29,567 bases of DNA from positions 1 to 29,567 of the forward strand of contig DATHNK010000306.1 of assembly GCA_035486075.1 (NCBI GenBank). The letters run 5' to 3'. Under the pieces are notes generated by a model. That model did not search any database. It was not told the origin of the DNA and saw only the letters and a program-made list of their open reading frames with translations. The translations under genes and the position numbers were made by a program. This DNA comes from Bacteroidia bacterium (GTDB lineage Bacteria > Bacteroidota > Bacteroidia > JABEUT01). This document shows, one piece after another, positions 4,773 to 24,090 of this stretch; positions within the stretch are counted from its first letter, which is position 1; each line of letters opens with the position of its first letter.

Positions 4773-5120
4773 ATGCCTTACAAGGAAAAAGAAACTGAAA
4801 AAATGTTTTACTCCATTGGAGAAGTGGCCGAAATGTTCCATGTGAACACTTCTTTACTCCGTTTCTGGGAAAAAGAATTCTCTACTATTCTTGATTTATC
4901 GAAGGACAGCCGTGGAAACAGGCAATATACTTCCCAGGATATTTCAAAAATCAGAGTATTGCATAACCTGGTTAAAGAACAAGGTTATACGCTGGAAGGC
5001 GCGCAGAAATATTTAAAAGAAAACAAAAGAGAAGCATTTGAAAGAGATGCAGTATATAGTTCACTGCTTAAAATTAAAGAACAACTCATCGCATTAAAAA
5101 AAATGCAATCGGAAGCTTAG
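4773..5120 (+). CDS. MerR family transcriptional regulator
   Basis: YSIGEVAEMF...LLRFWEKEF...GNRQY HTH. Start moved from 4683 to the ATG at 4773, just after the crotonase stop. Confidence 0.88.
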   Translation: MPYKEKETEKMFYSIGEVAEMFHVNTSLLRFWEKEFSTILDLSKDSRGNRQYTSQDISKIRVLHNLVKEQGYTLEGAQKYLKENKREAFERDAVYSSLLKIKEQLIALKKMQSEA

Positions 5121-6208
5121 AATTGGGTAGCCAATTTCAAGGTTTCTTCTTTCTTTACTTTACCTGTTGGCGTTTCAATAAACTTCTCGACTCTATAATA
5201 TTCCTTAGGGATTTCATATTTGGACAGAGTCTTTTCAGTCAGGGTTTTTATTCCGGCAATATCCATATTTTCCGGTACCTCAATTACAATAACTACTTTT
5301 TGCCCGAACTTTTCATCTGGCAAAGCTGCAATGAAAAACCTATGATCAGGAATTAACGTTGCTAATTTATTCTCTACAATCTCAGGATGAATTTTAATCC
5401 CGCCGCTATTGATGACATTGTCATATCGCCCCAGCCATTTAAAATGAGTTGAGTCATTTAGTTCGACAATATCATTTGTAATAACCGGAGCATCATTCAC
5501 TAAAGGTGCATTCACAATTAAACACCCCCGATTGTCACTCTCAAAATCGACCCCCTGCAATGCAAAATATTTATCGCTCCTTGATTTTCCACTCAATCTC
5601 CTTAATGCAACATGACTAAGTGTTTCTGTCATAGCAAATGTGGCATAAATTGAATTGGTATAACTTTCCAATTCTTTTTCCAATGATGGTGATATGGGAG
5701 CACCGCCAATAATTACATTTTTAATTGTTTGAAATCGCTTTTTGCTTATTTCATTACCACTTAAATTCTGAACTTGCAGTGGAACGAACGCTGCAAAATC
5801 AATTTTTTTTCCGGCAATACCCAGTAGCGGCTTATCAGATGGCTCCAGTGTTATCAAATCCATTCCGCTCACAAAAGCACGAACAACCATCATTTTTCCG
5901 GCAATATAATCAGGGGAGAGACAAAGTAATCCTGTTGTACGGTCAGTTAAATTAAAGTAATTACAGGTCATAAGGGCGCTGTTAATAAACTGCTCCTTTC
6001 TGAATGAAATTGATTTGGGCATACCCGTAGTCCCTGATGTATTAACTGTAACTGTTATCTTATCAGAAATCCATTCATCTATAAAACTATATAATGATTT
6101 TTTAAAGTCAGAAATAGTTGGTTCATTAATACCTTTATTGACCAATCTTACCAGATCATCCCTAAAATAGCCCTGACCATTTAATGTAATTTCGTCGAAA
6201 TAATTCAT
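5117..6208 (-). CDS. menE: O-succinylbenzoate-CoA ligase (short Bacteroidota-type MenE)
   Basis: AMP-binding TSGTTGMPK, FAMTETLSH, GRYDNVINSGGIKI. Last gene of the men cluster. ATG at 6208 overlaps the menC stop (ATGA). Confidence 0.85.
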   Translation of the reverse strand: MNYFDEITLNGQGYFRDDLVRLVNKGINEPTISDFKKSLYSFIDEWISDKITVTVNTSGTTGMPKSISFRKEQFINSALMTCNYFNLTDRTTGLLCLSPDYIAGKMMVVRAFVSGMDLITLEPSDKPLLGIAGKKIDFAAFVPLQVQNLSGNEISKKRFQTIKNVIIGGAPISPSLEKELESYTNSIYATFAMTETLSHVALRRLSGKSRSDKYFALQGVDFESDNRGCLIVNAPLVNDAPVITNDIVELNDSTHFKWLGRYDNVINSGGIKIHPEIVENKLATLIPDHRFFIAALPDEKFGQKVVIVIEVPENMDIAGIKTLTEKTLSKYEIPKEYYRVEKFIETPTGKVKKEETLKLATQF

Positions 6209-7263
6209 TCTGCAGTTTCTATTCTGTCCAAATTCCAATCTCTGCCTAAGTACCAGAGTTTAGTATCTTCCATTAAAAGAGGCGATGGAATGTTATTTGT
6301 ATAAAGTTGTCCTGTTCCTAATCCCTGTGGCAATTTGCTGTTTAGGGTATACGTCCATTGGGCAATAGCATTCAGTCCAATATTTGATTCCAATGCCGAA
6401 GTGATCCACCAACCTACCTTATACTTATTTGCAATTTCAATCCACTCTTCCGAATGCTTAAATCCACCAAGCAAGGAAGGCTTTATAATGAGATAACCAG
6501 GAAGAATTTGTGAAACAAGCCTTTCTTTCTCTTCATCTTTTAAAACACCAATAAGTTCTTCATCCAATGCAATGGGAATAGGAGATCTTCTACAGAGTTT
6601 TGCCATTTCTTCCCGGTTTCCTTGCTTTATTGGCTGCTCGATTGAATGTATTTTGAATACTGCCAACTGCTCCAATTTATTTAATGCTTCGTTATCTGCA
6701 AATGCACCGTTTGCATCCAGCCTTATTTCCAAATCATTTTCCTGATATTCCATACGTAATTCTGAAAGCATACTTAGTTCCTCTTCAAATCCGATCGCTC
6801 CTATCTTTATCTTAATACATCTGAAACCTGCTTCTATCTTCTCTTTCAGCTGCTTTTTAATAAACTCAACGGTCCCCATCCAAATAAGTCCGTTAGTTGG
6901 AATTCCTTCCAAACCGCCGGTAAAATTTGATGGGAATAGTATTCTGGTTCCATTATTTTTCAAATCCTTCAGAGCTGTTTCCACTCCAAATAATATGGAC
7001 GGAAATGCAAGTAACTCACTTGTTAAATTCTGAATATATACATTGATATTTTCACAAACATATTTCAAAAATTCTTCATAATTATCAACATCATCCACAC
7101 TTAAACCCTTTAAAATACTACATTCACCTATTCCAATAACAGAACGGGTTCCATCCTCCCATATCTTAATGAAATACGCCGGTTTTTCTGTTAGTACACC
7201 CCTTGAGGTACCTGATGGGTGTTTGAATTTTAATAAATATTTTTTATATTCAGCTTTATACAT
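6205..7263 (-). CDS. menC: O-succinylbenzoate synthase
   Basis: Enolase-superfamily motifs KIK, RLDANG, IEQP, LDEEL, IKP; position inside the men cluster. Confidence 0.85.
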   Translation of the reverse strand: MYKAEYKKYLLKFKHPSGTSRGVLTEKPAYFIKIWEDGTRSVIGIGECSILKGLSVDDVDNYEEFLKYVCENINVYIQNLTSELLAFPSILFGVETALKDLKNNGTRILFPSNFTGGLEGIPTNGLIWMGTVEFIKKQLKEKIEAGFRCIKIKIGAIGFEEELSMLSELRMEYQENDLEIRLDANGAFADNEALNKLEQLAVFKIHSIEQPIKQGNREEMAKLCRRSPIPIALDEELIGVLKDEEKERLVSQILPGYLIIKPSLLGGFKHSEEWIEIANKYKVGWWITSALESNIGLNAIAQWTYTLNSKLPQGLGTGQLYTNNIPSPLLMEDTKLWYLGRDWNLDRIETAE

Positions 7264-8161
7264 ATGGATTTAAACAAATGCTGATTCCCATGCAAAGAAC
7301 AAGTAATAAAGTAAATATAGCAAGTTGTTTAAGGTATTTATCCATTCCCGCAGAATCACTTTTCATAACGCCTACCAAATGCCAGATAAAAAGAGGGAGA
7401 GTTATTAGAAACGTCCATTGCCATGGGGAACTCATATGCAGCAGAGTAAAACGTGTTAATCGGCTAAAGGCAATTACAATTAAAAGAAAGTGATATCTCT
7501 TTGCATTAGTAAGCCCCAGTCTCACTGCAAGAGTTCGTTTACCGGTGGCCGCATCGGTATTTATATCCCTCATATTATTTACATTTAATACACCTGCACT
7601 TAAAAAACCAAGTGTACTGGCAGGCATTAAAATATCCAATTCAAAATAATGTGCATGCAGGTAAAAGGTTCCACCAACCCCAACTACTCCAAAGAAAATA
7701 AAAACAGCCATGTCCCCCAGACCTGAATATCCATAAGGTTTTTTACCCATTGTATATTTTATGGCTGCAACAATACATAGCAAGCCGATAACCAGAAATA
7801 TAAGAAATGTATAGAAATTATCTACCGCTTCGTATAACAGTATACACCCACTAACAAACGTAAGTAATGCAACAAAAATTACGGCATTCCGCATAGCGGA
7901 GACAGAAATCGTTCCGGTTTGCAAACTCCTCTGCGGGCCTATTCTTTCATCATTATCGGCGCCATGCTTGTAATCACCATACTCATTTGCCAGGTTAGAC
8001 AGTATTTGTAAAAGTACAGCAGTTAATGAAGTCAGAAGGCAAGTTTGCAAGTTAAATACCTTAAACCCTACAGCCAGGAAATTCCCCATGCCTGTAGCAG
8101 CTAAAGCAAGGGGTAATGTTCTTAAGCGCAGGGAAACGATCCATGCACGGGCCTTATTCAT
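7256..8161 (-). CDS. menA: 1,4-dihydroxy-2-naphthoate polyprenyltransferase
   Basis: RLRTLPLA, NLANEYGDYKHGAD, NNMRDINTD..GKRTLAVRLG UbiA/MenA motifs; multiple TM helices. Confidence 0.93.
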   Translation of the reverse strand: MNKARAWIVSLRLRTLPLALAATGMGNFLAVGFKVFNLQTCLLTSLTAVLLQILSNLANEYGDYKHGADNDERIGPQRSLQTGTISVSAMRNAVIFVALLTFVSGCILLYEAVDNFYTFLIFLVIGLLCIVAAIKYTMGKKPYGYSGLGDMAVFIFFGVVGVGGTFYLHAHYFELDILMPASTLGFLSAGVLNVNNMRDINTDAATGKRTLAVRLGLTNAKRYHFLLIVIAFSRLTRFTLLHMSSPWQWTFLITLPLFIWHLVGVMKSDSAGMDKYLKQLAIFTLLLVLCMGISICLNPYV

Positions 8162-8164
8162 GAA

Positions 8165-8992
8165 TTATGGGAATTTTGGGAATTTACTGAAATCGGGGTT
8201 TCTTTTTTCCATAAATGCATCACGACCTTCTTTTGCTTCGTCAGACAAATAATAGAGTAACGTTGCATTTCCTGCAAGTTCCTGTAAGCCCGCTTGTCCA
8301 TCCAATTCCGCATTAAATGAAGCTTTGAGCATCCTTAACGCCAACGGACTTTTTTGTAAAATTTTATTACACCATTCTACCGTAGCATCCTCCAATTGTT
8401 CAAGCGGGACGACTTTATTTACTAGCCCCATATCCAATGCTTCCTGTGCATTATATTGGTCGCATAAGTACCATATCTCGCGAGCTTTTTTTTGCCCCAC
8501 AATCCGAGCCAGATAAGATGCCCCAAAGCCTCCGTCAAAACTACCAACCTTAGGCCCAGTCTGTCCGAAACGCGCATTATCAGCTGCGATAGAAAGATCA
8601 CAAACAACATGTAAAACATGTCCGCCACCTATTGCCCAGCCCGCCACCATAGCAATAACAGGCTTAGGTATGGAACGTATTAATTTCTGCAAATCCAATA
8701 CGTTTAATCTTGGTGTTTTATCCTTTCCGACATATCCCCCATGTCCCCTCACACCCTGGTCTCCTCCCGAGCAAAAAGCTTTGCCGCCTTCGCCGGTCAG
8801 AATTATTACCCCAATATCGGTGCGTTCCCTACAAATATGCATCGCGTCAATCATTTCATCGACTGTGAGAGGCGTAAATGCATTATGCACTTTCGGGCGG
8901 TTAATACTAATTTTTGCAATGCCTTTATGAAAGGTAAGTAGAATTTCCTTATACTTCTTTATAGACTTCCAATCCCTTTTTTTTGTCTTCAT
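8165..8992 (-). CDS. menB: 1,4-dihydroxy-2-naphthoyl-CoA synthase
   Basis: [41 protein letters not shown] signature. Confidence 0.97.
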
Positions 8993-10689
8993 TTTTTCAG
9001 CAATTTAAAATAGCCAGCCCATATTTCTGCATTCAGTTGATTCGGAGTGAACACTTCCAATATAGCTGGTTTTCCTTTATGGTCTTTATATAATTTAGTT
9101 AAACTTAGCTTCAACTCATTTTCGTTTTTGGCAGAATAATAAGGAATATCAAATGCCTTCACAATGCCTTCGGCTTTCATAGAGTGCTTAGCCTCAAAAT
9201 ACTTTTCAAGTAATGGGGAATCCTTGGAATCGATCAAACGGAATATTCCGCCACCACCATTATTAATTACAATTATCTTCAAATTGCCATGCAGATATTT
9301 ATTCCATAAGGCATTCGAATCGTAAAGAAAAGCCAAATCTCCTGTGATGAGAGTTGTGATTCTGCCTGAACTGAATGCAGCTCCAGAGGCAGTACTCGTC
9401 ATTCCATCTATGCCACTTACACCACGATTGCAAAAATAATTTATCCTATTTTTGAATTTTGTTTCAAAAAGGTTTGCATATCTGATAGGGGAACTGTTAC
9501 CTAAATGCAGATGAGAATCTTTTGGAGTATTATTCCATATCATATCTATCACCTTTAGGTCAGTAAAAGGAACTTTTTTTGAATATGAAAGTAGGGCTTT
9601 ATTAGCATTATCCGAAATGCTCTTCAAGTCTTTTGCATAACTGATTTTCTGCTTATTTTTTTGTTTGCAAAGTAATGCGAAAAGATACTTCTCATCTACA
9701 GCCAATACATTTGTAAGAGATTGAAATGTATCAGTATGAGCAGCGGATATGGATATATGCCAATGTTGTAAAGGTATGTACTTACGCAGATATGTTTTCA
9801 GTTTCTTGCTAGTAACAGGCCCTCCAATGGTAATTAGCAGGTTAGGTTGAAAGAATTCCTTATCACTCTCATCAAAAGAATCCAAAACTGCATCCACATT
9901 ATGAATGAAATTATCATCCTGCATATTAGATGTAGTCTCGGTCAAGACAGCCACGGATGAATCATTTGCCAATTTGGCAAGCAGGCTATTTACTTCCTTC
10001 CCTGGTTTATGCAATCCGCAAACAATCATTTTCTTTTTTGCATTATTCCATACTGCCAACAACTCCTTCTCATCAACCTCACTCAATCGCTTTTGAACAA
10101 TGGAGGTATGAATGATTTTATAATCGATTTTTGCTTTTTCAACCTCTTTGTAAAGCGGTTCCCGGAGCGGAACATTGATATGCACTGGCCCCTCATTACC
10201 CCGTTCCATAGCAGTATTAAATGCCTCTGAAATCAATCGTTGAGCATACCACATATCATCTGGATGATTTATTTCGACCGGTAGATTGTAGGATCCCTTG
10301 CAATAATTAGAATATATCCTTCTCTGATTAATTGTCTGTCCGTCATCCTGGTCTATCCATTCAGGCGGACGATCAGCGGTAATAACGATCAAGGGAATAT
10401 TTTGGTAATACGCCTCTGCAATAGCAGGTGCGTAATTCAATGCAGCCGAACCGGAAGTGCAAATTATACCTACCGGAGAATTAGACTGTTGTGCAATTCC
10501 CAGCGCAAAAAAAGCTGCGCTGCGTTCATCTATTATCGACAGGCATTCTATTTCATCTTGTGAATCTAAAGCTATAATTATAGGAGCGTTGCGAGAACCG
10601 GAAGAAATAATTGCATACCTCATGCCTTTTGCTGCCGATATAGCTGAAAGAACTTGTGCTATTGGCTTGTCACTTGTAGTTTTATTCAT
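8989..10689 (-). CDS. menD: SEPHCHC synthase (ThDP-dependent)
   Basis: [53 protein letters not shown]. Start set at ATG 10689, overlapping the menF stop. Confidence 0.95.
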
Positions 10690-11734
10690 TTTCTTCAAAA
10701 GCGAAAAGTAACGTTTTCGATTTCAATTCTGTTTCTTCCCATTCTTTTTCAGGTACTGAATCCTTTGTTATTCCGCCTCCAATATACAAGTTTACTGCAT
10801 CGGTCAGTACTTCAGCGCAACGTAAGTTTACAAATAAATCGGTTTTACCTTCCATATTGCAGGGGCCCAGAAAGCCTGTATAATATTTTCTGTCGTAACC
10901 TTCCGTTTGTTTAATAAACTGGTTTGCTTCATCTAATGGAATTCCGCAAACAGCCGGAGTTGGATGCAAAGCTGAAACTAAATTCCATAATCCCGTATTT
11001 AATTTAGCAGAAAAAGAAGTCTTAATATGTTTTACATTTCCTGCAATTACCTCCTGCGGACCGGAAACAGAAATATTCTCACAATATTTTTGCAAAACAT
11101 TCCTGATATAATCCGTGACAACTTGTTGTTCTATTTTTTCTTTTTCACCCCATTCTTCCATATTTTCCAAGGGCTTAGTTCCGGCTAAAGAAACTGTTTC
11201 TATTTTATCCTGATCAGCAGAAATCAATAATTCGGGGGTAGCGGTTATCCACACTAAATTTTCCGGAATATATACCAGAGAAACAAAGGCAGCCGGATGT
11301 TTCATACAGAGTTTATAGAACACCCTTAGAGGGTTCTTGAAAGAATTACTTTTTATCTCTTTTACTCTTGACAGCACCACCTTTTTAATAGCTCCCGATT
11401 GAATTTTGGATACTGCCGATACAACATTTGCGCAGTACTCTTCCCGATTTTTAGAAACCATATCTGATACAAATACGTCTTTTATTTCCCAATTCAGATC
11501 ACGCAATGAACCACCATGCAATTCTTCAAGGTTTAATTTAGAATAGCTACTTGCGTGAATAAACAATGGTTTACATGAACTGTCAGAAGAAAATGGATAT
11601 AAAATAAACCCTGAATTTAGAGGGATATCGTCTAGGGAATCTATTTCAACAGCATTGCAATCAGACTGAAGGAAACAAACTTCCGTTTTATCAGGCATGC
11701 GGTAATAAATGATTGGAAATTTAAATTTACTCAC
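10682..11734 (-). CDS. menF: Isochorismate synthase
   Basis: KKVVLSR, ATPELL, LAGTK, HPTPAVCG, VNLRC, IGGGITKDS..EWEETELK chorismate-binding motifs; GTG start. Confidence 0.9.
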   Translation of the reverse strand: MSKFKFPIIYYRMPDKTEVCFLQSDCNAVEIDSLDDIPLNSGFILYPFSSDSSCKPLFIHASSYSKLNLEELHGGSLRDLNWEIKDVFVSDMVSKNREEYCANVVSAVSKIQSGAIKKVVLSRVKEIKSNSFKNPLRVFYKLCMKHPAAFVSLVYIPENLVWITATPELLISADQDKIETVSLAGTKPLENMEEWGEKEKIEQQVVTDYIRNVLQKYCENISVSGPQEVIAGNVKHIKTSFSAKLNTGLWNLVSALHPTPAVCGIPLDEANQFIKQTEGYDRKYYTGFLGPCNMEGKTDLFVNLRCAEVLTDAVNLYIGGGITKDSVPEKEWEETELKSKTLLFAFEENE

Positions 11735-11752: not shown

Positions 11753-13543
11753 TTAGAAACAATATTTGTTCTCAGCAAGCATCTTTGCAGCTATCCTGCG
11801 ACGCGCATTCTTACTATTGAACGGATCTGTTTTGGCAAAGCGCTTAATACCGTTTAACATCATTTTTTGCTCATCGCCTTCAGCAAATGCATAAATGGCA
11901 TCTCTTCCTGCCTTATGGATCCTTTCAGCTGAATCGCTTAGCCATGTCCGCAACATATCTAATTGCAAACTACATGCTTCTTCTCCGTTCACATTCACTA
12001 ATTTTTCCACCCGCAACTGCAAAGATTCGCCCACATAAACTTCTATGAGCATGTCTGCCACATTCATTACAATTTCCTGCTCGGTTTGCAGTTGGGTCAT
12101 CAACTTCTTCACAGCTGCTCCGGCAACCATTAAGCAAGCCTTTTTAAAACCTCTCAGATACCCTTTTTCTTTTGCAAACAACGAATCGTCTTGTTCGCCC
12201 ATATCAGGAATAGACATGAGTTCGCCTGCCACTTTCTGTGCAGGACCCAACAAATCTATATCTCCTTTGAGCGCACGTTTAATCATCATGTCAAGTATCA
12301 GCATACGATTGATCTCATTGGTGCCTTCAAATATGCGATTGATACGGGAATCACGATAAGCTCTTTCCATTGGTCCATCGGCCGAATACCCCATTCCTCC
12401 ATATATTTGCACACCTTCGTCAACTATGTAATTAAGGGATTCTGAGCCGAAAATTTTCATGATGGCGGCTTCTACAGCAAACTGTTCGGTCCCTTTCAAA
12501 ATAGCCTGACTCTTATCCATTCCGGCTTCAGTCAAACCGGTTATGGCATCCTCAATATTCCGGGTAGCGCGATATAGTGCCGATTCACATGCAAAAGCCA
12601 GAATTGCCTGTTGGCCCAATTTATGTTGAATAGCTCCATAGGTACCAATTGGATGACCGAACTGGCTGCGTTGGTTTGCATATTCCACTGCATGAGTGAT
12701 GATTGCTTTTGAGCCACCAAGTGTAGCAGCACCAAGTTTAATACGGCCGACATTCAAAATATTTACCGCTATCTTAAAACCATTTCCGCGTTCTGATAAA
12801 AGATTTTCGACAGGTACTGGGCAATCATTAAAAAATATCTGGCAAGTAGAACTACCCTTAATGCCCATCTTATGTTCTTCCGGATTTATAGTGATTCCTC
12901 CAAAAGTTTTTTCTACTATAAATGCGCTTAGGTTTTTATCGGCATCAATTTTGGCAAACACTATAAACAAGTCTGCAAAACCGGCGTTAGTTATCCACAT
13001 TTTTTGTCCGTTGATAAGATACTGTTTCCCATCGGCAGATAATTTGGCATTTGTTTTTCCCGAATTAGCATCAGAGCCGGCACCAGGCTCAGTTAGGCAG
13101 TACGAAGCTTTTAATTCGCCTGAAGCAAGTTTAGGAAGGTATTTGGTTTTTTGCTCTTCGTTGCCGTAATAAAGTATAGGCAAGGTTCCAATACCAGTAT
13201 GGGCCGTAATTGTAACCGCAAAGGAATTTCCGGGTCCTACGCTTTCTGTTGAAAGCATTCCCGTGACAAAATCTTTTTCAAAACCTCCATATTGTTCCGG
13301 TATATTCAGCCCCAATAAACCCAGTTCAGCCGCTTTATCAAGTATTTTTACCATGAGCCCTTCCTCCTTGTTATCCAACCTATCCATAACGGGCCAAATT
13401 TCCTGCTCCAGAAAATCATGACAGCTTTGGGCTATCATTTTTTGCTCTTCTGTGAATTCCTCAGGAATGAATATATCCTGATAGGAAGAATCCTTCACAA
13501 GGAATTCCCCTCCTTTCAATGTTGATTTCGTTGTCGTTTCCAT
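11753..13543 (-). CDS. fadE: Acyl-CoA dehydrogenase (FadE, ~600 aa class)
   Basis: YCLTEPGAGSDA, GQKMWITN, KMGIKGSST, QIYGGMGY, RIFEGTNEINR; follows fadA. Confidence 0.92.
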   Translation of the reverse strand: METTTKSTLKGGEFLVKDSSYQDIFIPEEFTEEQKMIAQSCHDFLEQEIWPVMDRLDNKEEGLMVKILDKAAELGLLGLNIPEQYGGFEKDFVTGMLSTESVGPGNSFAVTITAHTGIGTLPILYYGNEEQKTKYLPKLASGELKASYCLTEPGAGSDANSGKTNAKLSADGKQYLINGQKMWITNAGFADLFIVFAKIDADKNLSAFIVEKTFGGITINPEEHKMGIKGSSTCQIFFNDCPVPVENLLSERGNGFKIAVNILNVGRIKLGAATLGGSKAIITHAVEYANQRSQFGHPIGTYGAIQHKLGQQAILAFACESALYRATRNIEDAITGLTEAGMDKSQAILKGTEQFAVEAAIMKIFGSESLNYIVDEGVQIYGGMGYSADGPMERAYRDSRINRIFEGTNEINRMLILDMMIKRALKGDIDLLGPAQKVAGELMSIPDMGEQDDSLFAKEKGYLRGFKKACLMVAGAAVKKLMTQLQTEQEIVMNVADMLIEVYVGESLQLRVEKLVNVNGEEACSLQLDMLRTWLSDSAERIHKAGRDAIYAFAEGDEQKMMLNGIKRFAKTDPFNSKNARRRIAAKMLAENKYCF

Positions 13544-13550
13544 ATAATAG

Positions 13551-14729
13551 TTAGTTTAATAATTCAAATATTCCTGCCCCGCCCTGACCCATGCCTACAC
13601 ACATAGTAACAAGTCCATATTTTAATTTGCGCAGACGCATTTCACTAAATAGCTGCACAGATAATTTTGCTCCTGTACATCCCAAAGGATGTCCCAAAGA
13701 AATAGCTCCGCCGTTTACATTAACAATATCCTGGTTCAATTCCAATTTGCGCATTACAGCTACAGACTGCGATGCAAAGGCTTCGTTCAATTCAATCAAT
13801 TGAATGTCCTGTAATTTCATTCCCGCCTGTTTCAGAGCCTTAGGCACAGCTTCTACAGGGCCAATACCCATGATACGCGGGGGCACTCCGGCGGCAGAAT
13901 AAGATACCAATCTTGCAATTGGCGTAAGGTTCAGTTCTTTCATTTTCCGATCAGACATTACAATAACAAACGCTGCACCGTCCGATGTTTGGGAAGAGTT
14001 ACCTGCAGTTACGCTGCCATCAGCTGCAAACACAGGTTTTAATTTTGCAAGTGCATCCAACGAAGTATCCGCACGGGGCCCTTCATCTATATCTACAACA
14101 TATTCTCTTGATTTTATTTTGCCTTGCTCATCTACATAATTTTCTTTCACAGTAACCGGTACAATTTCATCCTTGAATTTACCCGCATTTATGGCAGCAA
14201 GTGCATTGGTATGTGAGCGTAAGGAGAAAGCATCCTGGTCGGCGCGAGATATGTTGAATTCATTGGCAACTGCTTCAGCAGTCATACCCATGCCCCAATA
14301 CCAATCAGGGTGATTATACCCAACCTCGGAATTAGGAACAATGCGCCATCCACCCATAGGTATAAGCGACATAGATTCTGCTCCTCCGGCGATTATTACA
14401 TCGGCCATACCTGCTTTTATTTTCGCTGTAGCAATGGCAATAGTTTCCAATCCCGATGCGCAATAGCGGTTTACAATCATACCTGGCACTTTGTCCGTGT
14501 CCAATGCCATTAAGGATATTAATCTTGCCATGTTCAGACCCTGTTCAGCTTCCGGCATGGCGTTGCCGACAATCACATCATCAATTTCCTCTTTCGCAAG
14601 ATTAGGAACTGATGCCATTAATTTGTGAATTACGCTTACAGCTAAATCATCTGTCCGCATAAAACGGAATTTTCCCCTTGGAGCTTTTCCAACCGCAGAA
14701 CGAAAACCAGCAACAATATATGCGTCCAT
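13551..14729 (-). CDS. fadA: 3-ketoacyl-CoA thiolase (beta-oxidation)
   Basis: NRYCASG, NEAFA, GHPLGCTG, MCVGMGQG; sits between fadN and fadE. Confidence 0.92.
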   Translation of the reverse strand: MDAYIVAGFRSAVGKAPRGKFRFMRTDDLAVSVIHKLMASVPNLAKEEIDDVIVGNAMPEAEQGLNMARLISLMALDTDKVPGMIVNRYCASGLETIAIATAKIKAGMADVIIAGGAESMSLIPMGGWRIVPNSEVGYNHPDWYWGMGMTAEAVANEFNISRADQDAFSLRSHTNALAAINAGKFKDEIVPVTVKENYVDEQGKIKSREYVVDIDEGPRADTSLDALAKLKPVFAADGSVTAGNSSQTSDGAAFVIVMSDRKMKELNLTPIARLVSYSAAGVPPRIMGIGPVEAVPKALKQAGMKLQDIQLIELNEAFASQSVAVMRKLELNQDIVNVNGGAISLGHPLGCTGAKLSVQLFSEMRLRKLKYGLVTMCVGMGQGGAGIFELLN

Positions 14730-14739
14730 AATTTATTTT

Positions 14740-17142
14740 TTAGTTTCTTAATATTTTTCCCCCATTCAAAATACTCTGCATCCTTTCCAATGTTTTCTTT
14801 TCTCCGCAAAGCGATAAGAATGCTTCCTTTTCCAGATCGAGAAGGTATTGTTCGCTTACCAAAGTCGGCGATGACAAATCTCCTCCGCAAATTACATGCC
14901 CCAGTTTTAGTGATATTTTTTTATCGTGTTCCGACATATAATGGCCTTTTTCCATTACATCAGCTCCTACATATATCATTCCCAGCGCTTGCTTGCCCAG
15001 CACTTTAATATCCTTACGAAGTACAGGCTGTGTATATCCTTCGTCCGCGAGACGTATGCAAGAAGCTTTGGCATCCGATAACAGACGGGAACGGTTAATT
15101 GTTACTTCATCGTGGCCTTTGCGAAGGAACCCTAAATCATACGCTTCGTACGCTGATGTAGAGACCTTTGCCATAGCCAGTGTTAAGTATTTTTCGCGTA
15201 ATAAATTCAATTCAATATCGCCATCTGCAAAAGAATCGGAAATACGCAGTGCCATTTCTTTGGTGCCACCACCGCCCGGGATAAGGCCTGCGCCAAATTC
15301 CACCAAGCCTATATAGGATTCTGCATGGGCCTGCACTTTATCGGAGTGCATTGCCATTTCGCAGGAGCCGCCAAGCGTAAGATTATGCGGGGCAACAACC
15401 ACAGGAATTGCAGAATACCGTATCCGCATGTTCATGTTCTGGAACATTTTAATGGCCATAGCTACATCATCCCATTCCTGCTCCACAGCCATGGAAAATA
15501 GAAGTGCAAGGTTGGCACCGGCAGAAAAATTATCCCCTTCATTTGAGATTACCAGTCCGCGGAAATCCTTTTCGGCCATTTCAATGGCTTTATTCACACC
15601 TTCAAAAACTTCGCTGCCAATAGTGTTCATTTTGGTGTGGAATTCCAGATTCAGAATTCCGTCACCAATATCGGTTACAGTAGTTCCTGCGTTTTTCCAA
15701 ACGGTTTTGCTTTCCCTGATATTATCCAGCAATATAAAGGCTTCTGAGCCCGGAATTATTTTGTAAGATAAGGAAGGAATATCATAATACTTCTTAATAC
15801 CATTTTCCGTTTTATAGAAAGAAGCAAAACCCTTTTTAAGCATATCATACACCCAGGCCGCAGGTTTACTTCCTGCCTTTTCCATCATATCAACTGAAGC
15901 TTGCACACCAATAGCATCCCATGTTTCAAACGGGCCTAGTTGCCAGCCGAAACCCGCACGCATAGCATCATCTATTCTATAAAGTTCATCTGAAATTTCC
16001 GGTATACGGTTAGATACATAAGCAAACAATCCGATGAAAGATGCCCTGTAAAACTCGCCTGCAACATCTTGCCCTGCTACTAATACTTTCATGCGTTCAG
16101 GAAGCGAATCGATAGCTTTGGTAAGTTCCAATGTGGCAAACTTCACTTTCTCGGAAGGCTTGTATTCAAATGTCTTCAGATCCAATGCCTGTATTTCTGA
16201 CTTACCGTCTTTTTTTACTTTTTTATAAAATCCTTGTCCGCTCTTATCGCCATACCATTTGTTCTCATTGAGTTTGGCAACATAGGCTGGCAATTCAAAC
16301 AAGGCATGGGCTTCATCGTTTGGAAGATTTGCCTTTAATCCGTTTGCTACATTTACAAGGGTATCCAATCCAACTACATCGCAGGTGCGGAAGGTGGCAG
16401 ATTTAGGCCTGCCTAAAACAGGGCCTGTTAGTTTATCTACCTGTTCAACTGTCAACCCCATCTTTTCTACAAGATGAAACAAGGCCATGATACCAAACAC
16501 CCCTACCCTATTGGCAATAAAGGCGGGTGTATCCTTACAGAGCACTGTAGTTTTGCCCAAATATAAATCCCCATAATGTGTGAAGAAATCAATAACATCA
16601 GGTGATGTTTTCGGTTCAGGAATAATTTCCAGCAATCTTAAATAACGAGGTGGATTGAAGAAGTGTGTACCGCAAAAATTCTTTTGAAAGTCTTCGCTGC
16701 GCCCTTCAGACAATAGATGTAGTGGGATTCCCGAAGTATTGCTCGTTATTAGAGTTCCAGGTTTGCGCAACTTTTCTATTTTATCAAAAAGACCTCTCTT
16801 GATCTGGAGGTTTTCAGTCACTGCCTCTATTACCCAATCGCAGGTTGATATTTGCGCCAGATCATCGTTCAAATTCCCTATGGCAATACGCGATAAAAAT
16901 GCTTTACTGTATATAGGTGAAGGATTACTTTTCACAACTCCCGCAAGGGCTTCATTTACGATGCGGTTTTTAAACGCTTTATCCTGAACAGTGAGTCCTT
17001 TTTTTATTTCATCATCCTGCAATTCTTTGGGAACAATATCAAGCAGCAAAACTTGTACCCCTATATTGGCAAAGTGACAGGCAATACGCGAGCCCATTAC
17101 ACCCGAACCTATCACTGCAACTTTCTTTATCCTACGATTCAT
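14740..17142 (-). CDS. fadN: 3-hydroxyacyl-CoA dehydrogenase / enoyl-CoA hydratase (FadN type)
   Basis: GSGVMG Rossmann motif, SNTSG, HFFNPPRY, C-terminal crotonase (FSAGANL, LGGSCE). The track's TTG start at 17163 lies inside a -7 promoter motif, so ATG 17142 is preferred. Confidence 0.92.
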   Translation of the reverse strand: MNRRIKKVAVIGSGVMGSRIACHFANIGVQVLLLDIVPKELQDDEIKKGLTVQDKAFKNRIVNEALAGVVKSNPSPIYSKAFLSRIAIGNLNDDLAQISTCDWVIEAVTENLQIKRGLFDKIEKLRKPGTLITSNTSGIPLHLLSEGRSEDFQKNFCGTHFFNPPRYLRLLEIIPEPKTSPDVIDFFTHYGDLYLGKTTVLCKDTPAFIANRVGVFGIMALFHLVEKMGLTVEQVDKLTGPVLGRPKSATFRTCDVVGLDTLVNVANGLKANLPNDEAHALFELPAYVAKLNENKWYGDKSGQGFYKKVKKDGKSEIQALDLKTFEYKPSEKVKFATLELTKAIDSLPERMKVLVAGQDVAGEFYRASFIGLFAYVSNRIPEISDELYRIDDAMRAGFGWQLGPFETWDAIGVQASVDMMEKAGSKPAAWVYDMLKKGFASFYKTENGIKKYYDIPSLSYKIIPGSEAFILLDNIRESKTVWKNAGTTVTDIGDGILNLEFHTKMNTIGSEVFEGVNKAIEMAEKDFRGLVISNEGDNFSAGANLALLFSMAVEQEWDDVAMAIKMFQNMNMRIRYSAIPVVVAPHNLTLGGSCEMAMHSDKVQAHAESYIGLVEFGAGLIPGGGGTKEMALRISDSFADGDIELNLLREKYLTLAMAKVSTSAYEAYDLGFLRKGHDEVTINRSRLLSDAKASCIRLADEGYTQPVLRKDIKVLGKQALGMIYVGADVMEKGHYMSEHDKKISLKLGHVICGGDLSSPTLVSEQYLLDLEKEAFLSLCGEKKTLERMQSILNGGKILRN

Positions 17143-17160
17143 AATTTTCTCTTTTACTGG

Positions 17161-17168
17161 CAAATTTA
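17161..17168 (-). promoter_or_regulatory. -7 promoter element for the fadN-fadA-fadE(-men) unit
   Basis: Reverse complement TAAATTTG, 18 nt upstream of ATG 17142. Confidence 0.6.
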
Positions 17169-20095: not shown

Positions 20096-20103
20096 CAAAG
20101 GTA
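20096..20103 (-). promoter_or_regulatory. -7 promoter element for the methyltransferase/DUF2851 genes
   Basis: Reverse complement TACCTTTG in the gap between the peroxidase-like gene and the methyltransferase. Confidence 0.5.
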
Positions 20104-20141: not shown

Positions 20142-21194
20142 CTAATAATGCATGCTGGGGTCAGCAAAACGGCGGTCATGGAGAAAAGTCTGGTCGGTGA
20201 GTGTTTTCAGAAATGCAATAATGTCTGCTTTATCTAATTCAGTAAGCTGAATGCCTTTGATTAGTATAGGGTCAGCGTGGCTTTCAGGGCTGAATTTTTT
20301 AGTGTAATGGTCCATCACTTGTTTCAGGGTTCTGAATCTGCCATCGTGCATATAGGGGTATGTCATTTCAATATTTCTTAGGGTAGGAACTTTGAATTTC
20401 ATAAAGTCTTTCATATCCCCATTGCTGGAAGCAACCCCCGAATCTTTCAGGTTTGTATCCATAGGTAAGCCTGTATTTCGGAATGTATTATCGGTAAACA
20501 ATGGTTCTTTATGACATTGGGCACAGTTATCCCGGAATAATTGCAGGCCGCTTAATTCAGCCATAGAAAAGGTATCCTCGCCCCGCATATATTTATCGTA
20601 GCGGGAATTGGCGGAAATCATAAGTCCTGTAAACTGTGCCAGTGCTTTTAATGTGTTGCGGGAATTTACAACGCTATCATTAAAGGCAGTTTTAAACATA
20701 GAGACATAGTCCTTATTTTGTTGTAGCTTTTTTATAATATGCTCTATAGTTTCATTCATCTCAATCGGGTTGGTAATAGGAGCCAGGGGCTGCACTTCCA
20801 GGTGGTTAATTCTCCCATCCCACATAAATGAATTACTCCATGCAAGGTTTTCAAGCGGAGGCACATTGCGTTTTCCAATCAGTCCATTTATACCATGGCT
20901 AAGGGCATGATCGATATGCGCAAAGCCCGCAATGCGCTGATGGCAAAATCCACAACTGATGGAGCTATCTTTTGAAAGGATTGGGTCATAAAAAAGCTTA
21001 CGGCCAAGTACAAAGCCCGCGGGAGTTGGCTTATTATTTTTAAAATCGTAGAATGGTTTAGGAAATCCTTGCGGTATTTTAAACTCCACGTCCTTTTGAG
21101 AAATAACGAAATACTTGTTATCGGCGATAAAACCCGCTAAAAGCAGGAGAAAAAATAAAGGGAAAACAAAAAAATAAATGAGTTTCCGTTTCAT
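20142..21194 (-). CDS. mbnH: Di-heme cytochrome c peroxidase family protein, MbnH/MauG-like
   Basis: Two CXXCH motifs (CGFCH 20940-20954; CAQCH 20511-20525), LGRKLFYDP.LS, FMWDGR, FKVPTLRNI..TYPYMHDG; N-terminal export signal/anchor; directly downstream of an mbnP-like gene. Family call is firm, the mbnH name comes from context. Confidence 0.8.
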   Translation of the reverse strand: MKRKLIYFFVFPLFFLLLLAGFIADNKYFVISQKDVEFKIPQGFPKPFYDFKNNKPTPAGFVLGRKLFYDPILSKDSSISCGFCHQRIAGFAHIDHALSHGINGLIGKRNVPPLENLAWSNSFMWDGRINHLEVQPLAPITNPIEMNETIEHIIKKLQQNKDYVSMFKTAFNDSVVNSRNTLKALAQFTGLMISANSRYDKYMRGEDTFSMAELSGLQLFRDNCAQCHKEPLFTDNTFRNTGLPMDTNLKDSGVASSNGDMKDFMKFKVPTLRNIEMTYPYMHDGRFRTLKQVMDHYTKKFSPESHADPILIKGIQLTELDKADIIAFLKTLTDQTFLHDRRFADPSMHY

Positions 21195-21200
21195 GCAGTA

Positions 21201-21941
21201 CTATTTACCTGTATCCATAACGCTAAACATAGTGGAATACTTATCCGCAATAGCTTTTGCATTGTGAAAATCTGTAACAGAAGATAGTTTGGAAAAATCA
21301 ACCGGATCGGGATCGGAAAACAGATGATTCACATCTGCTTTTATTTCTACGACACTAGTATTTCCTTCTCCTATTTTAAGTGGGTTATTAAATTTTAATT
21401 GAATTTTCCGGATGCAATTATTGGGTTCTTTATATCCGCCAATATGAAATTCCAACCGCTTTCCAGTGGAATTCGAAACTGACGATATGCCTTCCATTTT
21501 AAGAAATATATAGCCCGAGTTCCATGCCCAAAACATACCATTTACAGGATCCAATGCTCCTGATTGCGCACCGCTGCAATTATCGGCGCTATCTACACCG
21601 AGAGTGAAACTGACTGAAATATGTTTACCTTCAGGAATATTATCCAACTTTATTTGCATCGAGCTTTCATCGTCTTGGTTTATCAAAAAATATCCCGCTG
21701 AAACAAACTCTTTACCTGCTAAATTCATTAAATGAAAATTCCCTACATAATACTTGAACATGGTAACCTTATATGTTTGCCCCAATGAATTTTTATATGT
21801 TGCCGAATCAAGTTTCAATAGTGCATCGTCAACATAATTTTCAAAATGAATAAGTAGCTTCCCGTTTGGCGGGGGGCTAAATGACATAGCAGCCACCAGG
21901 GCTGCTATGCATAGAACACTATAAACTAGTTTTCTAACCAT
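21201..21941 (-). CDS. mbnP: MbnP family protein (WxW motif)
   Basis: FKYYVGN, LGVDS..N..GA..GALDP.NGMFWAWNSGYIFLKMEG, EFHIGG; signal peptide; adjacent to a MauG-like gene. Confidence 0.85.
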   Translation of the reverse strand: MVRKLVYSVLCIAALVAAMSFSPPPNGKLLIHFENYVDDALLKLDSATYKNSLGQTYKVTMFKYYVGNFHLMNLAGKEFVSAGYFLINQDDESSMQIKLDNIPEGKHISVSFTLGVDSADNCSGAQSGALDPVNGMFWAWNSGYIFLKMEGISSVSNSTGKRLEFHIGGYKEPNNCIRKIQLKFNNPLKIGEGNTSVVEIKADVNHLFSDPDPVDFSKLSSVTDFHNAKAIADKYSTMFSVMDTGK

Positions 21942-23191
21942 TATTGAACCTTAACTATCTTTTTTGTATAGGATGTATTGGACGTTTGTAAACGTAATAA
22001 ATAAACCCCTGCCGGATAGGATGTAAAATCAATGGAATAACTCATGCTTGGCTGCAAATTGCGGTATGCTTTCAGCATTTTACCGGTTATATCATACAAA
22101 GCACCGGCAATGTTATTATCGCTGGACGGATCAATATAAAAATAGGCGTAATCTGTTACCGGGTTCGGGTCAAGCGAGACTGTGATAGTTTTCTTAATTG
22201 TTGGTACAGTTGTATACACTTTAGTAGAATCTGTTGGTGTATTATGTCCTCCCGATGGGCCTGTGTTACCGTTTTGAACAATTCCGTAATAGGTCAATCC
22301 AAGTGTATAGGGATAAACAGGATTTAAAGCCGAATCAATTGTAACGAAGTAAGCGTAAATTCCTGAAGGATATTCAGGGGTTACACAAAACCGGCCGTTA
22401 TTTGTATCCAAGTCTCCGGAGCCAGGGATATATTTATAATCCTGTAAAAAATCACCTAAAGGATAAGTGCCGCTTACTGCTGGACCATAGTCTGCAGAAG
22501 ACAATATAGTCCCGTTCGGCAATGTGTCTCTGTTTATCATGCTAGTACGCAATTGATAGGAAGAGCGCATCCTCCTTACAGCACCGGCTACATTTGGATT
22601 GGAATAACCATACGCTCCATAAATGGGATAGCCATCAAAAGCATAGCCGATAATTGGGGAATGGTGCGTACTGTCAGCATCATTATATAGGCACTTAGGG
22701 TTTACGTGATTGTGGTAACATCCGCCCGGGGCAGGATGGCCTAGGCAATTATCAAAACTGGAACCTTCAAAATAATAGGCATTGCGGTCCCAATAACCTT
22801 GGTTATTATACGACATGGCATCCCAGGCATTAAATATGGCAACACCATTGCTCCATACCCCAATTTGTCCGCCTCCGGGAGATGTTTTTGTGCCTGTATT
22901 TTGCTTTGGGTGAAGGGTTATCATAAACACAAAATTCTGGTTCAGTGGTACGTTAGGGTCACCTGCCCATGGGCCAATACTATAGCCGGGAACGCTGGCG
23001 CAGCTTATATAAACATTGGCTGTATCATACTGTACAACGGTAACATTTGATGGAATTCCACCATATCCGGTATCTCCCGCAAGGTTAAGAACCCAGGAGG
23101 TAATCGCAGGATTTAGCTGCGCGGATGCCTGAAGAACGCAAGCGATGATAATACTTGCCGAAAAAACGATTTTTTTAATTTTAAGTTTCAT
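21941..23191 (-). CDS. YHYH-domain protein with T9SS C-terminal sorting domain
   Basis: Signal peptide; IGVWSNGVAIFN, DNCLGH...YHNH..PKCL, PIIGYAFDGYPIYG, GSGDLD..NGRFCVTPEYP.G.YAYFVT; C-terminal PNP...YDITGK...GVYLL...KKIVK. Confidence 0.88.
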   Translation of the reverse strand: MKLKIKKIVFSASIIIACVLQASAQLNPAITSWVLNLAGDTGYGGIPSNVTVVQYDTANVYISCASVPGYSIGPWAGDPNVPLNQNFVFMITLHPKQNTGTKTSPGGGQIGVWSNGVAIFNAWDAMSYNNQGYWDRNAYYFEGSSFDNCLGHPAPGGCYHNHVNPKCLYNDADSTHHSPIIGYAFDGYPIYGAYGYSNPNVAGAVRRMRSSYQLRTSMINRDTLPNGTILSSADYGPAVSGTYPLGDFLQDYKYIPGSGDLDTNNGRFCVTPEYPSGIYAYFVTIDSALNPVYPYTLGLTYYGIVQNGNTGPSGGHNTPTDSTKVYTTVPTIKKTITVSLDPNPVTDYAYFYIDPSSDNNIAGALYDITGKMLKAYRNLQPSMSYSIDFTSYPAGVYLLRLQTSNTSYTKKIVKVQ

Positions 23192-23223: not shown

Positions 23224-23231
23224 CAAAAGTA
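23224..23231 (-). promoter_or_regulatory. -7 promoter element for the YHYH-mbnP-mbnH unit
   Basis: Reverse complement TACTTTTG, 32 nt upstream of ATG 23191. Confidence 0.6.
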
Positions 23232-23337
23232 TACCGCCCGAACAGGTTAGGTGTTATGGTTTAACTTAAAAAAGTTATAAAATTCTATTTATCACCTGAT
23301 TTTACCAGCTAAGTGGCCGGAATATCCGGCTGTCCGC

Positions 23338-24090
23338 TTATTCGTTATCAGTCGGTGGGGGAGGTGGTGGCGTATTGCCTGCAGGTTGATTAGAAGAGGA
23401 GCCCCCAAAAATAAAACCAAGGGTGAAAGTAAATCCAATATTATGGCCCGCATTCCAAGTTCCATAATAAAAGTTATAAAATGAACCACCATTATTATTG
23501 TCATGTTGCAAAGCTGAATTAATGGAATTACTGTATCTCCCTTCAATATAGAAATGAGGGGTTATATTATAATAAATACCAATATATGGACTAATATCCA
23601 ATGCATTTAAATCAATAGGAGTAGGAATGCTTTGAGTTGAATATGAATAACTTATCAATGCGCCAATTGAGGCACCCGCTTCAATTCCATACCTATCAGT
23701 TGCAACATTATGTAAATTAAAATGTATTTGCCTTTTGAAGCCAATTACAACATCTACATAATTCAAAGTTAACGTAAAATAATCATTCAATCCAATACCT
23801 GTTATATTTCCAGTAACTCCATAGGTTGTATCGTAGGCTGGAGTCTGCTGTGCCCCTTTTTGAATATAGCGGATCTCCATTTGCATAATAGTCTTTGGGC
23901 TAATCTTTGCACTTACAGTGCCAGCAACTACAAAGCCTAAATGCTTATAATCCGCATCATTATCAATATTATCGGTACCCGGCATATCCGAAACACTGGC
24001 ACCTGCATAAAACCCCGCCCTGAAAATTTGAGCATTTGAGTACTGTAAATAGGGGAATATTAGTAAAAGTAACAGTGTTAATCGTTTCAT
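23338..24090 (-). CDS. Outer-membrane beta-barrel protein (PorT/porin-like) with Pro-rich C-terminal tail
   Basis: Signal peptide; alternating strands (FRAGFYAGAS, MEIRYIQKG, FYIEGRYS, FTFTLGFIF); tail ending PPPPPPTDNE. Confidence 0.75.
   Translation of the reverse strand: MKRLTLLLLLIFPYLQYSNAQIFRAGFYAGASVSDMPGTDNIDNDADYKHLGFVVAGTVSAKISPKTIMQMEIRYIQKGAQQTPAYDTTYGVTGNITGIGLNDYFTLTLNYVDVVIGFKRQIHFNLHNVATDRYGIEAGASIGALISYSYSTQSIPTPIDLNALDISPYIGIYYNITPHFYIEGRYSNSINSALQHDNNNGGSFYNFYYGTWNAGHNIGFTFTLGFIFGGSSSNQPAGNTPPPPPPTDNE

Follow-up and report, generated by a model that had tools for sequence, protein, structure and literature searches.

A conserved YHYH-MbnP-MbnH gene unit in Bacteroidota may form an envelope metal module

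A 29,567-nucleotide (nt) stretch of DNA from a Bacteroidia bacterium (contig DATHNK010000306.1 of assembly GCA_035486075.1), analyzed here at its full length and called the window, carries three adjacent genes for a YHYH-domain protein, an MbnP-family protein and an MbnH/MauG-like di-heme enzyme. The three open reading frames (ORFs) all lie on the minus strand and encode proteins of 416 amino acids (aa; YHYH, 21941-23191), 246 aa (MbnP, 21201-21941) and 350 aa (MbnH, 20142-21194). The YHYH and mbnP genes meet at CAATAATGG, where the TAA stop codon and the ATG start codon have base 21941 in common, and a gap of only 6 nt (TACTGC) separates the mbnP stop codon from the mbnH ATG. A preliminary description of this DNA, made from the sequence alone, had reported the co-orientation, the TAATG overlap and the short gap exactly as we find them. 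The source assembly comprises 2.77 Mb in 525 contigs and is 69.5% complete.

A Bacteroidota-type -7 box with the pattern TAnnTTTG (TACTTTTG, 23224-23231, minus strand) is located 32 nt before the YHYH ATG and is a putative promoter element. No further copies of the pattern were found on the coding strand between this box and a second one (TACCTTTG, 20096-20103, minus strand) that stands ahead of a methyltransferase gene; both boxes occur where they had first been described. With 36 copies in the window against 38.5 expected, the pattern shows no enrichment, so its presence alone says little and the weight lies in position and conservation. The upstream box keeps its position in relatives, where it reads TATACTTTTG. 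The second box, which had been proposed to bound the unit, is its probable downstream limit. This boundary is plausible because the methyltransferase follows mbnH only in the closest relatives (together with a DUF2851 gene, it is downstream of mbnH in just the six closest loci). A search for a terminator after mbnH, on the other hand, found none.

The YHYH protein is composed of a putative signal peptide (residues 1-24), a core (~25-330) and a type A C-terminal domain (CTD, ~337-415) of the type IX secretion system (T9SS). Its YHYH domain is matched by PF14240 (167.2 bits, E = 5.5e-49) and its CTD by PF18962 (E = 1.8e-10) and TIGR04183 (E = 1e-10), with 41.4 bits for each of the last two models. 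The AlphaFold2 (AF2) model of the protein has a predicted local distance difference test (pLDDT) score of 93.4, and residues 337-415 superpose on the T9SS-bound CTDs 8GLK_D (Z = 10.9) and 8QB1 (Z = 10.5). The core matches no solved structure: the matches from the PDB by Foldseek, from the VIA wide search and from Swiss-Prot models all fall within the CTD. A fold search of the AlphaFold Database clusters with the YHYH domain returns other YHYH proteins only, and a feature-based Atlas search with it gave no usable match.

The presumed metal site of this protein is a His/Asp/Cys cluster at residues 147-186 (22634-22753, minus strand). It includes D147, C149, H152, Y159-H160-N-H162, C167, H177 and D186, and these positions are kept in at least 80 of 81 orthologues. 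The name-giving motif is present here as the YHNH variant Y159-H160-N161-H162, with H152 and H177 in the same cluster. These four histidines (H152, H160, H162 and H177) are each at least 90% conserved in a 62-sequence family alignment that reaches 33% identity. Several Asp residues and three Cys residues are also invariant, as are W33, W75, W134, Y159, Y279 and Y281.

The N-terminus of the YHYH protein resembles a signal peptide, with MKLKIKKIVFSASIIIACVLQASA before the predicted cleavage site and Q after it. This residue, Gln25, is kept in 81 of 81 orthologues, and its position directly after the cleavage site fits the known preference of exported Bacteroidota proteins for an N-terminal Gln after cleavage. 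Export signals had been claimed for all three products. Each of them does begin with a basic and then a hydrophobic segment, and AF2 predicts a helix there in both of the proteins that were folded (YHYH and MbnP). T9SS C-terminal sorting domains are carried by at least 150 ORFs in the 2.77 Mb of the source genome, a number that implies unusually heavy use of type IX secretion.

The second gene product is assigned to the MbnP family by PF20243 (174.1 bits versus a cut-off of 27, E = 3.8e-51) and has a signal-like N-terminal helix. Fold comparison of its AF2 model (pLDDT 86.4) with the PDB ranks chains of 7L6G as the top six matches (probability 1.0, E = 6e-8, TM score ~0.5), and the next match has an E value of 0.03. 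Neither the single sequence nor a narrow 30-sequence profile matched the PDB, and a broader Bacteroidota profile (A3) reaches 7L6G with E = 8.3e-7; the two proteins are 14-16% identical. In the broad-profile alignment, G-M-F-W-A-W of MbnP is placed opposite G-M-A-W-N-W of 7L6G. The resulting M136-F-W138-A-W140 motif (21522-21536, minus strand) would supply the Met ligand and the Trp pair of a WxW motif. His166 (21444-21446, minus strand), a candidate Cu ligand, aligns with the His of M-V-H-V-G in 7L6G. All 48 orthologues keep M136, W138, W140 and H166 without exception. The copper site of 7L6G consists of His, Met, a water molecule and Kyn174, and this kynurenine derives from a Trp of a WxW motif (PMC11951088). 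The four-Cys motif in the name that the depositors gave to 7L6G is absent here: C11 falls in the signal region, and the mature part contains only C122 and C176.

The third product is matched by PF03150 (180.8 bits, E = 3.1e-53) and carries the CxxCH heme motifs CGFCH (residues 81-85, 20940-20954) and CAQCH (224-228, 20511-20525), both invariant in 37 orthologues. Its best NCBIfam model is TIGR04039 (211.6 bits, below the cut-off of 362.85), followed by MauG (178.5 bits). The protein aligns end to end (5.7e-38) with 6E1C, which bears the deposit title 'Di-heme enzyme' and which we take to be MbnH. Y297 (20304-20306, minus strand) is invariant in 37 of 37 orthologues and aligns both with the Tyr of 6E1C and with the Met of E-T-M-G in the Nitrosomonas peroxidase 1IQC. 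As in MauG and bacterial peroxidases, this is presumably the position of the distal ligand of the second heme. Judged from these alignments, Tyr297 in place of the peroxidase Met is a MauG-type signature, and MbnP and MbnH retain the features needed for Trp-to-kynurenine chemistry. All four domain calls of the preliminary description (YHYH, T9SS CTD, MbnP and CCP_MauG) are confirmed by these hidden Markov model searches.

We surveyed the gene neighborhoods of YHYH by ORF calling and clustering in the best 80 loci from 271 species-representative genomes with a close YHYH relative. These genomes are kin rather than independent samples, and most are metagenome assemblies. Only six families recur in the 80 loci: YHYH itself (79), MbnP (46), MbnH (38), an extracytoplasmic function (ECF) sigma factor (24), the PF13801 Metal_resist/LTXXQ family (22) and a ~96-aa protein (20). 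No other family around YHYH is found in more than nine loci. Among the 61 loci with at least 2.3 kb of DNA downstream of YHYH, 38 contain YHYH, MbnP and MbnH together (37 by ORF clustering, plus L055, which the clustering missed), and three contain MbnP without MbnH. The trio loci have diverged to 50-80% identity and have unrelated flanks. Two gene orders occur, YHYH-MbnP-MbnH and, in L054 and L059, MbnP-MbnH-YHYH. The adjacency first noticed in this one window is consequently not unique to its genome and is shared by many uncultured Bacteroidota.

Some individual loci depart from the common arrangement. In L022, L036 and L037, YHYH and MbnP are followed by a helicase or a patatin/Omp85 gene instead of mbnH. 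The mbnH frame of L004 (9051-10120) is split in two pieces. In an unlinked YHYH clade (L019, L026, L030 and L032), the downstream gene encodes a Peptidase_C92 protein, a permuted papain-like amidase of the YaeF/YiiX type.

The association extends across the phylum. Two family searches, for YHYH and for MbnP, over the same sample of 401 Bacteroidota genomes detected MbnP in 98 genomes and full-length YHYH in 37. In 12 of these 37, from at least seven families, YHYH lies within ~2.5 kb of mbnP on the same strand. From gene counts and genome size, we estimate the chance of two such genes falling within 2.5 kb of each other in a 4-Mb genome at ~0.1-0.5%. Outside one family (f32, discussed below), mbnP is present somewhere in 22 of the 25 YHYH genomes, compared to 98 of the 401 overall. 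The linked state is scattered on the YHYH tree and requires at least 10 changes, and none of 500 shuffles gave so low a number. This distribution fits an old linkage that was lost many times, and it suggests that the linkage arose early and was then lost or relocated repeatedly. Because the linkage is found in at least seven families and in two orders, and persists as the flanks turn over, the comparative sequence evidence strongly supports reading YHYH, mbnP and mbnH as a single functional unit.

The MbnP/MbnH pair also has other neighbors. In 20 Bacteroidota mbnP-mbnH loci that have no YHYH gene (L083-L102), a ~125-aa ORF is located upstream of mbnP in 10 and a ~325-aa ORF downstream of mbnH in eight. 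Neither ORF matches a Pfam or NCBIfam family (examples are L083 4971-5948 and 7964-8335). A TonB receptor is present instead in three of these loci (L099-L101), accompanied in two by a YtkA-like protein. Since YHYH-less pairs adjoin other recurrent genes in this way, the pair, MbnPH, may serve different partners.

The genes that flank the unit in the window (methyltransferase, DUF2851, TPR-cyclase and outer-membrane beta-barrel) adjoin it only in the closest relatives. The beta-barrel gene (OMP_b-brl_2, 23338-24090, minus strand; PF13568, E = 3.9e-11) is upstream of YHYH in nine of 80 loci and is a lineage-specific neighbor outside the conserved core. According to Pfam searches of the whole window, its remaining genes encode beta-oxidation, menaquinone and thiamine enzymes, UppP, a TPR-adenylate cyclase, a DUF2851 protein and a methyltransferase. 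A menaquinone-type run at 5117-11734 (minus strand) comprises chorismate-binding, thiamine pyrophosphate enzyme, enoyl-CoA hydratase/MenB-like, UbiA/MenA-like, enolase-C/MenC-like and AMP-binding/MenE-like genes, and it is followed by a beta-oxidation set at 11753-17163. The same searches found no mbnA, mbnB or mbnC, no TonB receptor, no CopC and no SCO gene in the window, which upholds their reported absence. MbnB (PF05114) was likewise not found in the source genome at its 69.5% completeness.

Two types of regulatory front end precede YHYH. In ~21 of 67 evaluable related loci, it is preceded by an ECF sigma factor, a ~95-aa protein and a Spy/CpxP-like Metal_resist protein (PF13801), in that order. 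Examples are L012 (2829-4197), L009, L011, L013, L015 and about 20 other loci, and the ECF trio occurs both with and without mbnPH. The ~95-aa protein matches no family. In L009, L011 and L015, the ECF trio sits between the outer-membrane beta-barrel gene and YHYH, whereas in the subclade of the window it is missing from beside YHYH, which directly follows the barrel gene. The layout of the ECF trio in relatives is like that of the metal-sensing CnrH/CnrY/CnrX ECF modules, its Metal_resist member resembles the periplasmic Spy/CpxP/ZraP proteins, and roles in anti-sigma function (for the small protein) and metal sensing are putative. In contrast to those modules, this window has no such set beside YHYH, and a weak one is found elsewhere in the source genome, ahead of a TonB receptor. 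This weakly similar set (contig C301, L082 215-3448) consists of an ECF sigma factor and three small ORFs, followed by a TonB receptor with a CarboxypepD_reg domain. One of the small ORFs is 32% identical to the Metal_resist protein.

The second front end is a conserved 34-nt block (AGAATTTTATAACTTTTTTAAGTTAAACCATAAC, 23253-23286, minus strand) located 21 nt upstream of the -7 box. It is a candidate operator or activator site that stays conserved in the subclade of the window while the rest of the spacer diverges. In 41 relatives, its core pattern matches only within the genus. It occurs exactly twice in each of five congeneric genomes, compared to zero or one match for a control pattern. The first copy is upstream of YHYH-mbnP, and the second lies, in the five genomes, between a gene for a 200-aa AraC-family protein and a PqqD-like gene. 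In the source genome, this second copy (contig C267, L104 ~811-872) again combines the block with a TATACTTTTG box, and the combination is also seen in loci L111-L121. An ECF-type -35/-10 reading of the block was rejected, since the would-be -10 element is not conserved between the two copies.

Downstream of the second copy is an operon for a PqqD-like protein, an ATP-grasp protein, a pyridoxal phosphate (PLP) decarboxylase, a urea-transporter/M23 fusion and two TPR proteins. The best NCBIfam match of the PLP decarboxylase is the rhizoferrin enzyme FslC, which scores below its cut-off and slightly above LysA. The N-terminus of the AraC-family regulator is weakly CopZ/MerP-like (NCBIfam CopZ, E = 1.4e-4). 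A heavy-metal-associated domain was considered for this region and, with that E value and no Pfam match, found only weakly supported. A kynureninase-like gene (KYNU_C plus Aminotran_5; L123 3913-5202, plus strand) lies a few kilobases from the AraC-associated operon of a congeneric genome, possibly by coincidence.

Orthologues of the regulator (89-98% identity) are present in the five genomes with the operator on the YHYH side and in one further genome (G404), in which YHYH was not found. In most other congeners, YHYH is present and the regulator is represented only by paralogues of 70% identity or less. This pattern belongs to a single clade and counts as one evolutionary event. It suggests, from sequence comparison, that the two operons form one regulon and that the subclade of the window has exchanged its regulatory input. 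What is specific to the window is the absence of the ECF trio together with the operator shared with the AraC-associated operon.

Known systems offer several points of comparison. The closest is MbnP/MbnH of Methylosinus trichosporium OB3b (7L6G; TIGR04052/TIGR04039, the 'metallo-mystery pair'). Both systems pair an exported MbnP-fold protein with an adjacent MauG-like di-heme enzyme, the M-x-W-x-W motif and the His align, and a Tyr replaces the Met heme ligand of peroxidases. The system described here differs in that it has no methanobactin genes and no TonB receptor, has diverged to the low identity given above, misses the equivalog cut-offs, has two mature Cys instead of four, and has a gene for a putatively T9SS-exported YHYH protein overlapping mbnP. 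Of the parts of a methanobactin operon (the mbnA precursor, mbnB/mbnC and the MbnT receptor), the window contains none.

MbnPH is also known outside methanobactin producers, as had been stated earlier for mbnP-mbnH pairs in general, and there has a copper context (PMC9426467). The copper-regulated cruR (DUF2946) operons of Proteobacteria carry MbnPH-like genes outside chalkophore producers, together with TonB receptors, PepSY_TM, Sco, PCuAC, YcnI or CopC and under upstream-ORF control (PMC9426467). Here the partner is YHYH instead, and control is by the ECF trio or the AraC-associated operator. MopE/MCA2590 and CorA/CorB of methanotrophs resemble the present system in having an exported copper-related protein, a MauG-like di-heme enzyme gene and an extracellular member. 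The MopE and CorA genes lie next to di-heme peroxidase genes. The structures 2VOV and 4BZ4 represent MopE and CorA as secreted or surface Cu(I) proteins with kynurenine (PMC11951088). The YHYH protein differs from both: its fold is unrelated and structurally unsolved, its predicted export route is T9SS, and a separate MbnP accompanies it.

The YHYH group must also be compared with its own family. PF14240 has 3,621 cluster representatives at E values up to 0.001. The contigs retrieved as encoding short YHYH homologues were all tiny. The same domain and His cluster are found here, and an extracellular location is typical of the family. The orthologous group described here stands apart in having a single YHYH core plus a CTD, in being highly conserved, and in its operon linkage to MbnPH. 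Elsewhere, YHYH is fused in large secreted proteins to sulfatase, arylsulfotransferase, FG-GAP, Calx-beta, chitobiase-C, Ig and dockerin domains (P0006, P0011, P0018, P0032, P0048, P0063 and P0070), and P0011 and P0070 each have two matched YHYH stretches. The domain also occurs in phage tail proteins and multidomain fusions (PMC7824862). Metal binding by YHYH has been predicted (PMC7824862; bioRxiv 10.64898/2026.10.18.759936), and published comment is confined to the Zn-site and hydrolase predictions and the phage-tail role. No searchable paper mentions YHYH together with MbnP, in keeping with the earlier remark that no characterization of the unit was known; the neighborhood tables of the main MbnPH papers fall outside this coverage and may contain YHYH. 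The MbnP/MbnH pair itself was already known. Its combination with a putatively T9SS-exported YHYH protein and with the two types of front end described above was found in no searchable paper.

These features can be combined into a mechanism. The three genes would be a single transcription unit for an envelope metal module, most likely one for copper. If MbnH, with its predicted His/Tyr heme, acts as its family suggests, then it would oxidize one Trp in the M-x-W-x-W loop of MbnP to kynurenine and so create a Met/His/Kyn Cu(I) site in the periplasmic protein, comparable to the known Kyn/Met/His Cu site (PMC11951088). YHYH would be a third dedicated partner, a metalloprotein with a mononuclear His site. 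It would fold in the periplasm before T9SS carries it to the cell surface or into the medium. In periplasmic transit, it may be a client of MbnP/MbnH that receives metal, and possibly an oxidative modification, before acting outside the cell. Expression would be conditional, governed by the ECF trio in many relatives and, in the subclade of the window, by the 34-nt block shared with the operon beside an AraC-family regulator gene.

We tentatively favor this client model, in which MbnP/MbnH metallates or matures YHYH in the periplasm prior to export, while regarding it as somewhat short of probable. It is preferred because T9SS cargo folds before export, because the conserved core includes no importer, and because MbnPH has varied partners. 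Both the identity of the metal as copper and the direction of any transfer we infer.

Several observations weigh against this interpretation. The case for copper comes solely from a homologue of 14-16% identity, and both NCBIfam cut-offs are missed: the MbnP protein scores 43.7 bits against the TIGR04052 equivalog cut-off of 140, over residues 100-209 only, and MbnH falls short of the TIGR04039 threshold as described above. The metal that others have predicted for YHYH is Zn and not Cu. A comparison of linked and unlinked copies detected no residues in the core domain that are specific to MbnPH-linked YHYH. Neither MbnP nor MbnH is found in 20 of the 61 loci, leaving about a third of orthologous YHYH genes unlinked. 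In family f32, which has shorter YHYH-family proteins, mbnP is present in none of the genomes. The fusions and the phage-tail occurrences imply that the domain does not generally depend on MbnPH. Finally, the sole RNA match bearing on co-transcription is a 167-nt metatranscriptome contig that lies within YHYH.

Alternatively, YHYH could be a Zn-dependent surface hydrolase or glycan binder that shares the operon only through one envelope-stress regulon. On the basis of a His triad plus Asp, Iyer et al. predicted a Zn hydrolase (PMC7824862), and the preprint likewise predicts a Zn site formed by three His residues. The fusions to sulfatase, chitobiase-C and Ig domains, the presence in phage tails, the ECF/Spy-like trio upstream in many loci and the unlinked third of the orthologues are all compatible with this role. 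A stress regulon needs no tight operon linkage, however, and the stop/start overlap, the two gene orders, a linkage that outlasts all other neighbors and the genome-level co-occurrence in 22 of 25 genomes are not explained by it. We consider this alternative unlikely.

Copper might instead move inward, with a surface or secreted YHYH protein scavenging it outside the cell and passing it to periplasmic kynurenine-MbnP for uptake, a relay along the lines of one role suggested in the preliminary description. MbnPH acts in copper acquisition by methanotrophs, where its deletion leaves Cu-methanobactin outside the cells (PMC13729199), and the T9SS CTD and invariant His cluster of YHYH would suit a scavenger. 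The secreted or surface copper proteins MopE and CorA, with their neighboring di-heme peroxidase genes, offer a parallel. Neither a TonB-dependent receptor nor any other importer is present in the conserved core or in the window. The absence of an outer-membrane importer from the core favors periplasmic loading over transfer from surface to periplasm. Moreover, where TonB receptors accompany mbnPH in Bacteroidota (L099-L101), YHYH is absent. A relay of this kind seems to us rather unlikely.

A further possibility, also suggested in the preliminary description, is that YHYH is itself a substrate of MbnH. Like MauG acting on methylamine dehydrogenase, the enzyme would then generate a protein-derived cofactor, either kynurenine or a cross-link, within YHYH in the periplasm. 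The enzyme is MauG-like with a Tyr heme ligand, and YHYH transits the periplasm and has the invariant W33, W75, W134, Y159, Y279 and Y281 to offer. These conserved Trp residues are also kept in YHYH homologues without a nearby MbnH, and no YHYH residue is specific to linked copies. The three loci with YHYH-MbnP and no MbnH, set beside zero loci with YHYH-MbnH and no MbnP, are weak evidence either way. Because its known substrate MbnP always accompanies it, MbnH can be accounted for without a second substrate, and we regard this possibility as improbable. That the adjacency is a chance or lineage-specific accident, a concern raised by the kinship and the largely metagenomic origin of the surveyed genomes, is effectively refuted by the survey and very improbable, given that 38 of 61 loci contain the trio despite identities of 50-80% and unrelated flanking genes, and that the linkage reaches at least seven families against an expected chance adjacency of ~0.1-0.5%.

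A broader version of the client model can be formulated from the shared operator. The YHYH group would then be a new class of secreted copper or other redox-metal protein whose active site MbnP/MbnH would load or oxidatively mature in the periplasm before export, and the genus would co-regulate it, through the shared AraC-type operator, with a PqqD/ATP-grasp/FslC-like operon that could make a small metal binder. We think it improbable that all of these elements hold together. If they do, the system would be a methanobactin-independent analogue of the chalkophore system.

MbnP/MbnH is a recently solved and poorly understood copper system, and YHYH is a large orphan family found in bacteria, phage tails and diatoms. 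The conserved operon that joins them gives YHYH its first testable functional context, and it brings type IX-secreted cargo of Bacteroidota within the scope of MbnPH biology. As alternative front ends, the ECF/Spy-like trio and the AraC-associated operator provide handles for finding the signal that induces the module.

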